From NCBI GenBank assembly GCA_963848295.1, contig CAWKDB010000010.1, positions 3,424,001-3,488,000 of the forward strand: a stretch of DNA of 64,000 nucleotides, read 5' to 3'. This document shows positions 42,364 through 46,683 of the stretch, piece after piece. A model generated the notes under the pieces. It was not told where the DNA came from. It searched no databases and saw nothing but the letters and a program-made list of their open reading frames with translations. Both the position numbers and the translations under genes were made by a program. Numbering within the stretch: position 1 is the first letter of the stretch; every line of letters starts with the position of its first letter. This DNA comes from an uncultured delta proteobacterium (GTDB lineage: Bacteria > Myxococcota_A > Polyangia > Haliangiales > Haliangiaceae).

Positions 42364-43449
42364 GTGACGTCCGCGGTGGTGCCGGCGACCGCGCGCGCCG
42401 CGATCGATCGCTGCGAGCGCGCGTCGCTGGTGTTCGATCTCGAGACGATCGAGAGCACGGTGCGCCGCGTCGCCGAGCTCGCGCATGCGCATCGCATTCG
42501 CGTGTTGTTCGCGGCGAAGTCGTTTCCACATCCGGCGGTGCGCGCGGTCGCGGCGCGGCATCTCGACGGCTTCGATGTCGCCTCGCCGGCGGAGCTCGGC
42601 GCTTGTGCGCCGCTCGTGCAGATGATCTCGATCGCCGATCCATCGGGCGCTGCGATCGCGGCGGCGGCGAGCACGAACGGCCGGCTGATCGTCAGCTGCG
42701 ACACCGTCGAGCACGTGCGGGCAGCGCCGGCGCATGCGGCGATCGCGATCCGCTTGTCCGCATCGTTGACCGGGCGCGATCCGGCGATCGGCGCGGTGCT
42801 CGACGGCAACGGCCATCATCGCTCGCGGTTCGGGCTCGATGTCGATCCCGCGCGCCGGCGCGCCGCGGTCGGCGAGCTCGTGCGCGCGGCGGCGGGGAGG
42901 CCGATCGGCTTGCACGTCCATCACGGGCCGATCGTCGCGGCGTCGGCGGAGCGATTCGTCGCGACCGCTCGGGCTGCGCTCGCCGCCGTCGAGGTCGCGC
43001 CCGCGTTCTTGAACCTCGGCGGCGCGTGGCACGGCATCGCCGATCTCGACGCGGCGTTCGCGACGGTGCGCGCGGCGGTGCCCGCCGACCTCGAGCTCGT
43101 GATCGAGCCGGGCCGGTTGTTCTCCGCCGGCGCCGGCTTCGCGGTCGGCCGAGTCACGGCCGCGCGTTCGCTCGACGATCGCGAGCTGCGACTGCTCGAC
43201 CTGTCGCGGATCTGCCACCTGCGCTGGAGTCCGATCGAGCTCGTCGCGCGCGCGCCGGCGCCGGGCGAAGGCCGCGCCGTGCTCTACACCGGCCCGACGT
43301 GCTTCGAGGAGGATGTGCTCGGCGAGTGGACCGTCGCGCCCGCGGTCGCGGCGGAACCGCGCGCGGTGTTCCGCGGCGTGACCGGCTACGCGCTCGCGTG
43401 GAACGTCGGGTTCGCGGGCGTCCCGCCGGCGGACGTCATCGTCTGCTAG
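42364..43449 (+). CDS. PLP-dependent fold-III decarboxylase (DAP/Orn/carboxynorspermidine family)
   Basis: FAAKSF, FDVAS, SRFG, NLGG, EPGR, GPTCFEED. Confidence 0.8.
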   Translation: MTSAVVPATARAAIDRCERASLVFDLETIESTVRRVAELAHAHRIRVLFAAKSFPHPAVRAVAARHLDGFDVASPAELGACAPLVQMISIADPSGAAIAAAASTNGRLIVSCDTVEHVRAAPAHAAIAIRLSASLTGRDPAIGAVLDGNGHHRSRFGLDVDPARRRAAVGELVRAAAGRPIGLHVHHGPIVAASAERFVATARAALAAVEVAPAFLNLGGAWHGIADLDAAFATVRAAVPADLELVIEPGRLFSAGAGFAVGRVTAARSLDDRELRLLDLSRICHLRWSPIELVARAPAPGEGRAVLYTGPTCFEEDVLGEWTVAPAVAAEPRAVFRGVTGYALAWNVGFAGVPPADVIVC

Positions 43450-43469
43450 CGCCAATGCCGCTCAGATAA

Positions 43470-43968
43470 CGTTGACCTTGACCTGAACGGTGAACCTGAA
43501 CTTGAACGGCACCTTAGACGTTGTCGTTGACACCGCAACTCCAGAGTTGTGTGGCCGATAGCCCGGTCATGCTCAGCTTCCAGAAGCTTCGCGTCGATCA
43601 ACGCTCGATCGAGTTCCTCGCGCTGGCACTGGAGATCATCGGCGAGCTTCCGAAGGGTCATGCCGAGCTTGCCGATCAGCTGGTCCGCGCCGCGCAGTCG
43701 CAACCGCGTAAGATCGCCGAGGGTGCGGGTCGTCGCACGAACGTCGATCAGGCTCGCCTCTACGCGCACGCGCGCGGCTCCGCGATGGAGGCCGCAGCGG
43801 CTTTGGACACGATGCGAGTCCTGAAGTTGGTCGGCGAGACGACCTACGCGCGCGGCATCGATCTACTTGAAGCATCGTGGCGATGCTCACCAAGATGACC
43901 TGATCGGGTCGACGTCAATGTCCAAGGTGGCGTTGATGTTCATGTTCATGTCGAGGTCAAGGTCAACG
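43470..43968. repeat. ~61-bp imperfect inverted repeats built of hexamers, flanking the four-helix-bundle gene
   Basis: 43470-43531 CGTTGACCTTGACCT...CACCTTAGACGTTGTCGTTGAC matches the reverse complement of 43908-43968. Confidence 0.85.
43569..43903 (+). pseudogene. Four helix bundle protein (23S rRNA IVP/bAvd-like fold) with apparent 1-nt frameshift near the C-terminus
   Basis: MLSFQKLRV.QRS...LADQLVRAAQS...IAEGAG...ARGSAME. The shifted frame at ~43872 gives IVAMLTKMT*. Confidence 0.8.
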
Positions 43969-43986
43969 CACTTATCTGAGCGGCAT

Positions 43987-44157
43987 GTGCGCCAGGCCAA
44001 GCCTGGGAGAGGAGAACGGATGGATATCCGCCTCTTCCGCCCAAGGTCGTCCACAGCATCTACCGGACGTAGCGAACCCGTGGACGAAGAGCCGGATGCC
44101 GGAAATCGGCACGTCCGGATCTGTGGGAGCCCCGGGTCACACCCGGGGCAACCCGAC
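43987..44157 (+). mobile_element. Internally deleted (miniature) group II intron
   Basis: 5' GTGCG; domain V GAGCCGGATGCCGGAAATCGGCACGTCCGGATC (44089-44121); domain VI hairpin ending CCCGAC. Its removal restores the TIR. Confidence 0.9.
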
Positions 44158-44175
44158 TGCTGCTAGCGCGTGCTG

Positions 44176-45567
44176 TTACTGGTCCGCGGGCGGCGCCTCT
44201 TCGACCGGCGCGTCGGGCACGACCGGCTCGGCGCCACCGCCCGCCGGCGCGAGGTCCGAGCGATCGACGCGCAAGCTGTCGGTCGAACGCGGCAACGCAT
44301 CGGCGCGGCGCGGCGGGAAGGTCAGCGCGAACGTGAAGTACACGGTGTTGCGCAGGTACGACGGGATCAGCAGCGCCGCGCGCGAGTCGCCGTTCTGCGC
44401 GAGCAGCTCGTAGCGCAAGCCATAGGTCTGGTTCGGCGCGGGCGAATAGGTCACGCCGAGGTCGAAGTGGGTCACGTAGAACGTCCCGTCGTTCGCACTC
44501 GTGTTCGCGTCGAGCAGCTCGGTGAGATCGAAGCCGATCGAGCCGAGCAGGTTGACCTTCGGCGCGCCGGTGTGGGTCGTGCCCAGCCAACTCAGCGGGA
44601 GTGCGAGCTGGAGGAGCGCGAGGTCGTCGCGGGTGTTCTGCGCGATCAAGAGATTTGGCGCGACGGTCTGGCGGACCTGCAACGTCGCGCGCCCCCAGGT
44701 ATCGGCGTACGCGACGAGCGCTCCGCCGGCGGGCAACACGGTCGCGTGCTGCGCTACGGTCGTGTCGATCGTGTGCAGCGGCACGATGGCCACGCCGCCG
44801 GCGTCGACGTTCATGCTCCAGCGGCGACCAAAGTCGCGGCGCCAGATCACGCGCGCCCGCGGATCGATCTGCTCGGCGAGCTGAACCGGGCCGACGACGC
44901 CCATCGCCAGCGTCTGCTGATCGAGCCGGAGGTATGCTCCGCCGAGCTCGAGGGCGAGCGAGTCGTGGTCGAAGGTACGCTCGATCGAGCCGAGCGCGCC
45001 CGCCTCGGCCGAGTCGATCGTGTCGTTCATCGCATCGGTGGTATCGACCACGTGGCCGTAAGCGGTCTCGGTGAGCCTCGACTTCTCGGTCACCTCGTAC
45101 GAGGCGGATTCGCTGACATCGGCCTGGCGGACCGTCTCCTGGCCCGCCGGCTGGACCATGACGCCGGTCTGGTCGGGCGACGTGCGCGCCGCCAGGGCGC
45201 TGAGCTTGCCGGTGCTCGCGTCGACCAGCGTGGTGACCTGCGACCGCGGTCCGGGCGTCCAGAACGCCCGCCACGCCGCGCGGAATTGCAGCGATGGTTG
45301 GTCGTTGTGGACCACGTACTCGAGCACCTCGGCCTCGGCGGTCAGCTCGTCGATCAGGGTCGGGCCCTCGTGGGCGAGCAGCAGGCCGGGCCGGACGTCG
45401 AAGAACACGTCGGCCTCGCGGTCGCCGTCGGCCGGCGCCGCCAGGGCGTTGTCGGTCGTCGCCACGCTCCCGTTGGCCGTGACGTGGTACGTGGTATCAG
45501 CGCGAGCATACGAGGCAGCCAACGCGATGACGCTTCCAAACGCAACCGCGGGCAGGGGCCAGCGCAC
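44176..45567 (-). CDS. Outer-membrane beta-barrel, possibly polysaccharide-export associated
   Basis: Signal peptide, TTDN near the N-terminus, alternating beta strands; lies near polysaccharide genes. Confidence 0.65.
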   Translation of the reverse strand: MRWPLPAVAFGSVIALAASYARADTTYHVTANGSVATTDNALAAPADGDREADVFFDVRPGLLLAHEGPTLIDELTAEAEVLEYVVHNDQPSLQFRAAWRAFWTPGPRSQVTTLVDASTGKLSALAARTSPDQTGVMVQPAGQETVRQADVSESASYEVTEKSRLTETAYGHVVDTTDAMNDTIDSAEAGALGSIERTFDHDSLALELGGAYLRLDQQTLAMGVVGPVQLAEQIDPRARVIWRRDFGRRWSMNVDAGGVAIVPLHTIDTTVAQHATVLPAGGALVAYADTWGRATLQVRQTVAPNLLIAQNTRDDLALLQLALPLSWLGTTHTGAPKVNLLGSIGFDLTELLDANTSANDGTFYVTHFDLGVTYSPAPNQTYGLRYELLAQNGDSRAALLIPSYLRNTVYFTFALTFPPRRADALPRSTDSLRVDRSDLAPAGGGAEPVVPDAPVEEAPPADQ

Positions 45568-45668
45568 CGCTTTTCTTGTAGCACGGGCTGCCGATGTCCA
45601 AAGGTCGCGCTAGTGGTTGACAGCCCTCGCTGGCGCCGTGCTTAGAATCTCTAGAAGGCATCTTACAA

Positions 45669-46595
45669 ATGCGCAGTGATCCTCCCGAAGAGCTCCCACC
45701 CCTGTTTGCCGCTGCCCCGCGCAAAGTCGAGCGCGAAGAGGACGAAGAAGACGCGGGCGATGAGGACGACGACGACGCCGAGGACGAGGACGACGACGAC
45801 GATGTCGGCGGCGCCGATGACGACGATGAAGAAGAGGACGAGCCCGACGACGAAGACGACGGTGCCGACAAGGTAGCCGACGAGGGCTGGTCACCGGCGA
45901 CGCCCGCCGACGACGAATGGGTCGAGGGCGAGGAGAAGCCCGAGGAAAAAGACAAGGACGAAGACGAGGAAGAGGACGACGCCGACGTCGGTGGTTGGCG
46001 TGAAGGCACCGCGCGCCCGCCGTGGGCCGGCGAAGAAGACGAGGACGACGACGACGATGATGATGACGACGACGAGGACGACGAAGAAGACGACGACGAT
46101 GACGTTGACGACGAGGACGACGAGGACGAAGAAGAGGACAAAGTAGCCGCTCGCCCGCGCGCGATCATCCGCGACGACGGCGACGACGACGACGATCCGC
46201 CGGCGAAGGACGACGACGACGAAGAAGAGGAGCGCGACGAGCGTCCGCCGCGTGGCCCGATCCCACCGCGCCCGGCCAAGCCGTTGCCGATGGGGAAGCA
46301 ACCGATCGTGGTTCCGGCCAAACCGGGCACCACCCCCGTCAGGCCGCTGGTTCCGGTCGCCAAGACACCGGTCGCGCCTGCGCCGGCGAAGCCTACGCCA
46401 CCTGCGAAGCCGACTTCGCCGCCGCCTGCGCCAGGCAAGCCGGCTGCGCCGCCGCCCGCCGCGAAGCAGCCACCCGCGAAGCCCGCGGCGAAACCGGCCG
46501 CCAAGCCCGCCGCTAAGCCCGCCGCCAAGCCGGCCGCCGCGAAGAAGCCAGCGCCGAAGAAGCCGGCGGCCAAGAAGCCCGCGAGGAAGAAGTAG
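45669..46595 (+). CDS. Low-complexity protein: acidic D/E block + Pro/Ala/Lys histone-H1-like tail
   Basis: Codon-structured GAC/GAA/GAG tracts and KPAAK repeats; fills the gap between genes. Confidence 0.7.
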   Translation: MRSDPPEELPPLFAAAPRKVEREEDEEDAGDEDDDDAEDEDDDDDVGGADDDDEEEDEPDDEDDGADKVADEGWSPATPADDEWVEGEEKPEEKDKDEDEEEDDADVGGWREGTARPPWAGEEDEDDDDDDDDDDEDDEEDDDDDVDDEDDEDEEEDKVAARPRAIIRDDGDDDDDPPAKDDDDEEEERDERPPRGPIPPRPAKPLPMGKQPIVVPAKPGTTPVRPLVPVAKTPVAPAPAKPTPPAKPTSPPPAPGKPAAPPPAAKQPPAKPAAKPAAKPAAKPAAKPAAAKKPAPKKPAAKKPARKK

Positions 46596-46683
46596 CGCCC
46601 GATCTCGCGCACTTAGGAAATCGTTCGGGAGCGCTGCGACTTTCCGTTAGGGTCGGGGCGTCTCGTGGTCAGAGCCACGAACG

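Follow-up and report, generated by a model that had tools for sequence, protein, structure and literature searches.

A probable transposase-less IS4-type cassette with a hairpin-enclosed four-helix-bundle gene and a group II intron remnant in a Haliangiaceae genome

How does a small four-helix-bundle gene come to lie between two convergent host genes, framed by direct and inverted repeats and followed by a piece of a group II intron? This question is raised by a stretch of 64,000 nucleotides (hereafter the window; contig CAWKDB010000010.1, forward-strand positions 3,424,001 to 3,488,000) from an uncultured delta proteobacterium of the Haliangiaceae. Its genome (G000; 7.78 Mb in 11 contigs, 85% complete by marker count) was examined together with those of its genus and family. 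The answer proposed here, which we hold to be very likely, is that a 707-bp segment of the window (43453-44159) is a transposase-less cassette of the IS4 subgroup of insertion sequences (ISs) that carries a hairpin-enclosed four-helix-bundle gene, its mobility likely being supplied in trans by an IS4-type transposase.

The segment is flanked by two copies of a 10-bp direct repeat, CTGCTAGCGC (43443-43452 and 44160-44169), the left of which spans the TAG stop codon (43447-43449) of the upstream open reading frame (ORF), 42364-43449. The left end of the element, CAATGCCGCTCAGATAA, reads AATG in positions 2-5 and ATA in positions 14-16. It thereby agrees with the end consensus -AATR--------WTW---- that Table 1 of PMC2266710 gives for the IS4 subgroup along with direct repeats of 10-13 bp, a range into which the 10-bp duplication of the element falls. 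The right end is present in two pieces (43972-43986 and 44158-44159), parted by 171 nt (43987-44157) that start with GTGCG and end with AC. When these 171 nt are removed, the two pieces join into an exact reverse complement of the left end, and a perfect 17-bp inverted repeat results. In the E. coli K-12 record, IS4 has the ends TAATGCCAGTCAGTTAAG and TAATGCCGATCAGTTAAG and a 12-bp duplication; the window end is identical to the right end of E. coli IS4 at 14 of 17 positions. A 17-mer with at most three mismatches would be expected 0.08 times in the window and is present solely at the two ends of the element. The ORF list of 43453-44159 holds no transposase ORF. The main ones of these features had been claimed in the original prediction, which was made from the letters of the window and a list of its ORFs: the 10-bp repeat containing the decarboxylase stop around 707 bp, the inverted repeat that becomes perfect on removal of the intron, and the lack of a transposase were all confirmed, and its statements on the E. 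coli IS4 end and on duplications of ~10-13 bp agree with the K-12 record and with the tabulated range.

The same ends recur elsewhere in the genome. Their 15-nt core has 12 exact occurrences genome-wide, and a reversed control pattern gave three matches in total at up to two mismatches, a count that is not split by mismatch number. By BLAST of the element, 11 clear cassette copies were recovered. Three are full copies with cargo (the window copy, C2:270988-271527 and C2:797062-797604), two are short and cargo-less (73 bp at C10:2116766-2116838 and 81 bp at C10:4408267-4408347), and the remaining six are truncated or rearranged. Perfect 10-bp duplications of different sequence flank three of the copies (CTGCTAGCGC, GTTCTAGCGC and GCGCTAGATC), and two further copies show agreement at 9/10 and 8/10 positions. 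All readable duplications in the genome are centred on CTAG. The short copies retain the ends, the start of the hairpin arms and the 10-bp duplication, and they therefore look like deletion derivatives of the cassette.

Empty sites were found by using 42900-44750 of the window as the query against 61 genomes of the genus, G000 included; 60 of the 61 gave a match (the tally includes the unpublished genomes G077 and G082). The decarboxylase orthologues of G111 and G090 end ...CCTAGCGA and ...TCTAGCGA, respectively (in wider reads, ...GTGACCTAGCGATCG... and ...CTGGTCTAGCGATCG...), the convergent gene is reached within a few tens of bases, and the element is absent between them. Removal of the element with one repeat copy from the window leaves 9 bp between the two convergent stop codons. 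Because of these empty sites and this stop spacing, the segment is identified as an insertion into a CTAG at a stop codon. The duplication preserves the upstream stop codon intact.

Which transposase could have moved such a cassette? A pattern search of 101 genomes of the family, G000 included, found an end with at most one mismatch in 15 of them. In G002, two end pairs lie 1.5 kb apart and bound an element of 1511 bp with the ends CAATGCCGTTCAGATAAG and CAATGCCGATCAGATAAG and the 10-bp duplication GGGCTAAGGC. It encodes a 455-aa transposase, which matches PF13006 (9.5e-29), PF01609 (4.5e-19) and NF033592 (245 bits; cut-off 115), and shows a full-length identity of 37% to E. coli InsG. Homologues of the G002 protein (E <= 1e-10) were found in 28 of the 101 family genomes and in 17 of 53 same-genus genomes (the unpublished G082 is counted here as well). 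Twelve transposase loci were fetched, and both ends and both flanks were readable in seven. Perfect 10-bp duplications were present in five of the seven (GGGCTAAGGC, GCGCTAGCCG, CGGTTAGCAC, GCCTTAGCGC and CGGCTAGCCG), following the pattern NNN(C/T)TA(G/A)NNN. The ends of the transposase-bearing elements (CAATGCCGNTCANNTAG) are different from those of the cassette at 2-5 of 17 positions. The genus thus contains autonomous partners with the same target habit, and the cassette may have been moved by their transposases. The non-autonomous IS4-type cassette with four-helix-bundle cargo that had been predicted is supported by its ends, its duplications and its family matches. Of what the prediction had led one to look for, further copies with the same ends (11 in the genome) and an empty site with a single CTAG-centred stop (in G111 and G090) were present, and a cognate IS4 transposase, with near-identical ends and 10-bp duplications, was met with in the same genus and family, not in the genome itself. 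The features of the locus are collected in Table 1.

Table 1. Features of the element and its two host neighbours, in window coordinates.
Feature	Position	Strand	Basis
Upstream host gene, PLP (pyridoxal phosphate)-dependent decarboxylase-like	42364..43449	+	PF02784 at 7.6e-7
Left 10-bp target-site duplication CTGCTAGCGC, CTAG central	43443..43452	.	Layout shared by other copies, with different 10-mers
Left terminal inverted repeat CAATGCCGCTCAGATAA, IS4-subgroup type	43453..43469	+	End consensus, likeness to E. coli IS4
Left hairpin arm, hexamer-like repeats (TTGACC/CTGAAC...), pairs with 43908-43971	43470..43531	+	Inverted-repeat search, RNA fold
Cargo, 109-aa 23S_rRNA_IVP/TIGR02436 four-helix-bundle protein	43569..43898	+	Family models
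Right hairpin arm, pairs with 43470-43531	43908..43971	+	Inverted-repeat search, RNA fold
Right terminal inverted repeat, inner 15 nt TTATCTGAGCGGCAT; also putative 5' exon and homing site of the intron	43972..43986	-	
Group II intron remnant, 171 nt (intron nt 1-40 plus last 133 nt)	43987..44157	+	RF00029, BLAST against the long copy
Right terminal inverted repeat, outermost 2 nt TG (CA on the other strand), split off by the intron	44158..44159	-	
Right 10-bp target-site duplication CTGCTAGCGC	44160..44169	.	Direct-repeat search
Downstream convergent host gene, 463 aa	44176..45567	-	ORF list; no Pfam family

The cargo was assigned by family models to the PF05635/TIGR02436 four-helix-bundle family. 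It matches PF05635 (23S_rRNA_IVP) at 1.1e-15 with 58.2 bits (cut-off 33.8) and TIGR02436 ("four helix bundle protein") at 1.5e-14 with 54.2 bits (cut-off 24), and for the intact sister copy the Xanthomonas protein 2gsc_A is a match at 8e-7. RNA folding of 43453-43986 predicts a long terminal stem with the ORF in its loop (z = -7.8; 0 of 100 shuffles as good). Cargo of the same family lies inside such ends in other genomes as well: in G066 with 73% amino-acid identity, in G069 with 41% identity, different hexamer arms and a perfect duplication (GAACTAGCGC), and in G055 in a frameshifted form. A Pfam scan covered 146 of 156 stop-to-stop ORFs adjoining 14 further end matches in relatives. No other recurrent cargo was found in the scanned ORFs, PF05635 (in L053) being the sole family inside an end pair; the other matches were ordinary host genes and one IS200-like match beside a doubtful end match.

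Compared with the G066 cargo, the cargo of the window shows a dN/dS (ratio of non-synonymous to synonymous substitution rates) of 0.17-0.18, from 41 synonymous and 33-35 non-synonymous differences. Its C-terminus reads ...LEASWRCSPR, as in the C2:797 copy; in the third copy and in G066 it is ...IVAMLTKMT, an ending that L100 DNA also reads. In contigs of a soil metagenome, an extra G stands behind 43871. From the C-terminus and this extra G, it follows that the window copy has lost one base late in the gene, next to 43871, which alters the last nine residues. Contigs from four DNA sequencing runs cover the repeated parts of the locus (43446-44183) only, without the unique flanks, and they provide no joints. 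As a separate observation on this gene family, PF05635 has 31 matches in the genome, of which 20 form ten divergent pairs ~1 kb apart (for example C2:1461565/1462744, C11:317095/318205 and C10:511346/512274), an arrangement unlike that of the IS4-ended cassette.

What is the 171-nt piece that splits the right end? Group II domains V-VI (RF00029) match 44087-44157 at 45.2 bits (gathering score 40), and the group II signatures present are a GUGYG-type 5' end (GTGCG at 43987), domains V-VI and an AY-type 3' end (AC). Domains I-IV and the reverse transcriptase are deleted from it. By BLAST, its two pieces lie ~1.5 kb apart in an intron copy of 1681 nt (C2:795381-797061), which occupies the same inverted-repeat position in another cassette copy, but at the opposite end. 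This long intron copy matches RF02005 (group-II-D1D4-6) at 111 bits, RF00029 at 45.2 bits and RVT_1 at 1.9e-28, and its ORF is frameshifted and lacks the N-terminal part. The deletion in the window joins ...GGATGGATA to TCCGC... with 2 nt of microhomology. Of the 11 cassette copies, 6 contain intron sequence, each with a different deletion, and several of the deletions take parts of the cassette too; the 171-nt form is unique in the genome.

The position of the intron is constant. All substantial intron matches in the genome lie against a cassette copy, always at the same position of one or the other end, and TG directly follows the intron on its 3' side in two other copies of this genome. In G114, all three intron 3' ends, each at a contig end, are followed by TG and then by NNN(C/T)TAGNNN; the intron is therefore regularly located 2 bp inside such ends. 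A candidate exon-binding site 1 (EBS1), AUGCUG, is located in a domain I hairpin loop (nt 218-223 of the long copy), from where it can pair with the 5' exon end CGGCAU. The parent intron is at least 1.7 kb long and appears to home into the inverted repeat of the cassette. Away from the cassettes, a lone exact match of 25 nt to the last 25 nt of the intron (the end of domain VI) was noticed at C2:1221122-1221146.

A sequence of events can be proposed for the locus. An IS4-type transposase supplied in trans would bind the 17-bp ends and insert the cassette, by cut-and-paste movement, at a 10-bp target centred on CTAG. The group II intron would then retrohome into the right end, 2 bp from the tip, at what seems to be its regular target. 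This would part the terminal CA/TG from the rest of the end and so disable the end and immobilise the copy. A later internal deletion of ~1.5 kb would leave the 171-nt remnant, which should be unable to splice because domains I-IV are gone.

Several observations weigh against parts of this account. In the 85%-complete genome itself, no IS4-type transposase was found (PF13006 has no matches, and tblastn with the G002 protein gave none), and none of the other cassette-rich genomes, G066, G069 and G014, has a match to the G002 transposase. Because of this, we infer mobilisation in trans rather than see it, and the cassette copies here may be stranded. One cargo copy in G066 has flanks that do not match. 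The window cargo copy carries the late frameshift described above, and the three copies within the genome show a dN/dS near 1, at 5-8 differences only. The reading to which we commit is that the cargo is a passenger probably maintained through selection acting on the cassette lineage, with purifying selection between species and drift within the genome. No EBS2 of the intron was identified, and scans of 43300-44300 gave no promoter-like or terminator-like sites. A further point comes from a survey of 80 loci with cargo relatives (43-83% identical to the cargo), drawn from one-genome-per-species contigs that are mostly Myxococcota by record titles, with a few from other phyla. An IS4-type end was present on both sides in 2 of the 80 loci, on one side in 4 and on neither in 74. 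Judged by this survey, the gene-plus-hairpin module mostly travels or persists without IS4 ends.

Could the hairpin-plus-gene module then be the primary mobile unit, with a mechanism of its own, and the IS4 ends a secondary host in the form of a short IS4-derived miniature inverted-repeat transposable element (MITE)? Besides the 74 loci without such ends, an inverted-repeat search of L100, L102, L103 and L107 showed the gene to be boxed by inverted hexamer-repeat arms of 60-120 nt, and the sequence of six loci (these four, L105 and L109) contains a gene boxed by hexamer arrays without IS4 ends. Another cargo relative in the same genome (C8:9516-9824; 51% identical) has (AGCCCG)n arms and likewise lacks IS4 ends; contig C8 is without Rfam matches at the gathering scores and is no rRNA contig. 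In G069, IS4 ends of the same kind hold modules with the different arms and the 41% identical cargo noted above. However, the duplications in this genome adjoin the IS4 ends and not the arms, the cargo-less short copies keep the ends with a 10-bp duplication, and no enzyme or target signature of an independent route was seen. We consider this explanation rather unlikely, and as one that would supplement the transposase-driven cassette, not replace it. Of the two, the hairpin-plus-gene module is nevertheless the wider unit and, with ends on both sides in only 2 of the 80 loci, the IS4-ended cassette is one vehicle among several.

A very improbable alternative is a functional coupling between intron and four-helix-bundle gene, in which the protein would serve the intron reverse transcriptase as Avd does in diversity-generating retroelements. 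Avd falls in PF05635, the family of the cargo. Intron sequence is, moreover, found in more than half of the cassette copies (6/11). Against coupling, the intron sits at either end and in either orientation relative to the gene, it is also found in the cargo-less short copy C10:2116766-2116838, and the association is accounted for by homing that is specific to the inverted-repeat sequence. Among the cargo relatives, the six that were read showed no noticeable intron sequence; the 80 loci were not searched for introns.

Slightly less probable still is a functional mini group II intron without an ORF: the 171-nt piece would be spliced, or a reverse transcriptase encoded at another locus would mobilise it in trans. 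At its two tips the piece has kept GUGCG (5') and AC (3'), its domains V-VI score above the Rfam gathering threshold, and the same deleted form occurs in contigs of two soil or root metagenome runs, which may derive from the same strain. Nearly all of domains I-IV is gone, however, including the candidate EBS1. The deletion form is single in the genome, the other five intron-bearing copies each being deleted differently, and no intact reverse-transcriptase ORF of this intron was found in the genome. Because domains I-IV and any reverse transcriptase are gone and the deletion form is unique, the piece is best regarded as a dead remnant and not as a working mini-intron. Of the mini group II intron in the original prediction, the group II domains V-VI stand and the small functional intron gives way to an internal-deletion remnant.

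That the repeats are chance matches in G+C-rich DNA can be dismissed: the 10-bp repeat alone could be chance, because a second exact 10-mer pair is present within the same kilobase, but the 12 exact cores against the three control matches, the different 10-bp repeats flanking the same ends elsewhere and the empty sites in related species already refute that reading.

How does the cassette compare with known systems? It has the features of a mobile insertion cassette or MITE, namely IS-type ends, a passenger, no transposase, copies at multiple sites and an empty site. MIC231 of Bacillus cereus is reportedly a mobile insertion cassette on the ends of IS231 (IS4 family) with a passenger gene, ~10-bp duplications and presumed mobilisation in trans. 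The element resembles it in having IS4-family ends round a passenger, no transposase, a duplication of ~10 bp and presumed trans-mobilisation. It differs in that its ends are of the IS4 subgroup proper and not of IS231, its passenger is a hairpin-enclosed 23S_rRNA_IVP gene and its target has CTAG at the centre. PMC2266710, which cites MIC231, states that its modular aspect was not seen in other IS4 subgroups as of 2008. The suggestion that the cassette could be an undescribed vehicle did not hold, its kind having been described as a mobile insertion cassette or as a MITE with a passenger; no new kind of element is revealed by the locus. With E. coli IS4 (insG), the element shares the end (14/17) and a duplication within 10-13 bp, and the transposase of its relatives is 37% identical to InsG and has the Nterm_IS4 and DDE_Tnp_1 domains. 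Unlike E. coli IS4, it has no transposase, has kept 17-21 bp of each end and has a 10-bp duplication, that of K-12 IS4 being 12 bp.

PF05635/TIGR02436 is a widespread family, known for its occurrence in 23S rRNA intervening sequences. ORF-bearing ones, for example those of Coxiella burnetii (PMC4990558), share with the element an S23p-family protein, an ORF in the loop of a long stem and short tandem repeats before the start codon. The element lies between protein-coding genes and has transposon ends and a target duplication; that it is itself a 23S rRNA intervening sequence was rejected on the first of these grounds. The origin of the intervening sequences is called unclear in PMC4990558, where "remnants of a transposition event" is one hypothesis. 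A literature search of limited reach found no paper that links the PF05635/TIGR02436 family to MITEs or cassettes. We tentatively propose, as a possibility that we do not favour on balance, that the hairpin-armed gene is a selfish passenger that has repeatedly taken over IS ends (here those of IS4). ORF-bearing 23S rRNA intervening sequences would then be insertions of such cassettes, tolerated as the long stem is cut out, and the protein would be kept for helping the cassette and not the cell.

The group II intron RmInt1 of Sinorhizobium meliloti homes in ISRm2011-2; according to PMC5894124, it blocks the spread of its host element and its remnants decay slowly. The intron of the window also appears to home in DNA of insertion-sequence type. 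In contrast to RmInt1, its target would be the terminal inverted repeat of an IS4-type cassette, it matches RF02005 and all of its copies in the genome are deleted. The locus thus offers the case of a group II intron that seems to use a transposon inverted repeat as its homing site, which would disable that end, followed by the stepwise decay of both elements. Together with its sister copies and relatives, it provides comparative evidence for one concrete transposon vehicle of PF05635/TIGR02436 genes. This vehicle has defined ends, a 10-bp duplication, a CTAG-centred target often at stop codons, empty sites and candidate transposases in the same genus, and it can thereby be tested at the bench.

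Other mobile elements of the genome were considered in connection with the cassette. DDE_Tnp_1 has 15 matches in the genome, most of them in an IS1380-like element (1647 bp, six copies) and an IS10-like element (1285 bp, three copies). These transposases were rejected as the cognate ones, the read ends of both IS families being different from those of the cassette. The IS1380-like element (C10:232571-233272 and five more) is present in six nearly identical copies with the ends CCCGGATCATTCG and with CTAG at the flanks of each; a second mobile element here therefore also targets CTAG. At C10:3175866-3176872, an internal cassette fragment without both ends adjoins a truncated IS1380-like transposase gene, and an open frame is continuous across the two, forming a junction of two decayed mobile elements. 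The two copies that combine cassette and intron at G000:C2:795355-797624 and G000:C11:720955-722232 have flanking 10-mers that match crosswise. GGGCTAGTAC is found on the end side in one copy but on the intron side in the second, and GGTCTAGGGC and GGT-TAGGGC correspond likewise. The crosswise flanks therefore indicate, from sequence, a reciprocal recombination between the C2:797 and C11:722 copies, that is, a repeat-mediated chromosomal rearrangement.

The surroundings of the element in the window and its orthologues provided two further observations. In L088 (G107:C52), L087 (G046:C210) and L089 (G060:C3), three different and unrelated elements bounded by inverted repeats are located at the orthologous stop, directly behind the decarboxylase stop codon (the equivalent of window 43447-43449), for example GGGGTCAGGGTCAACTTGCGCAACTT.... 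This narrow space between the convergent genes is a repeated landing site of small mobile elements. Beyond the downstream host gene, a stretch of very low complexity (window 45497-46612) keeps long ORFs open on both strands, the minus-strand ORF (45497-46612) being Ser-rich and the plus-strand one (45669-46595) first Asp/Glu-rich and then Ala/Pro/Lys-rich.

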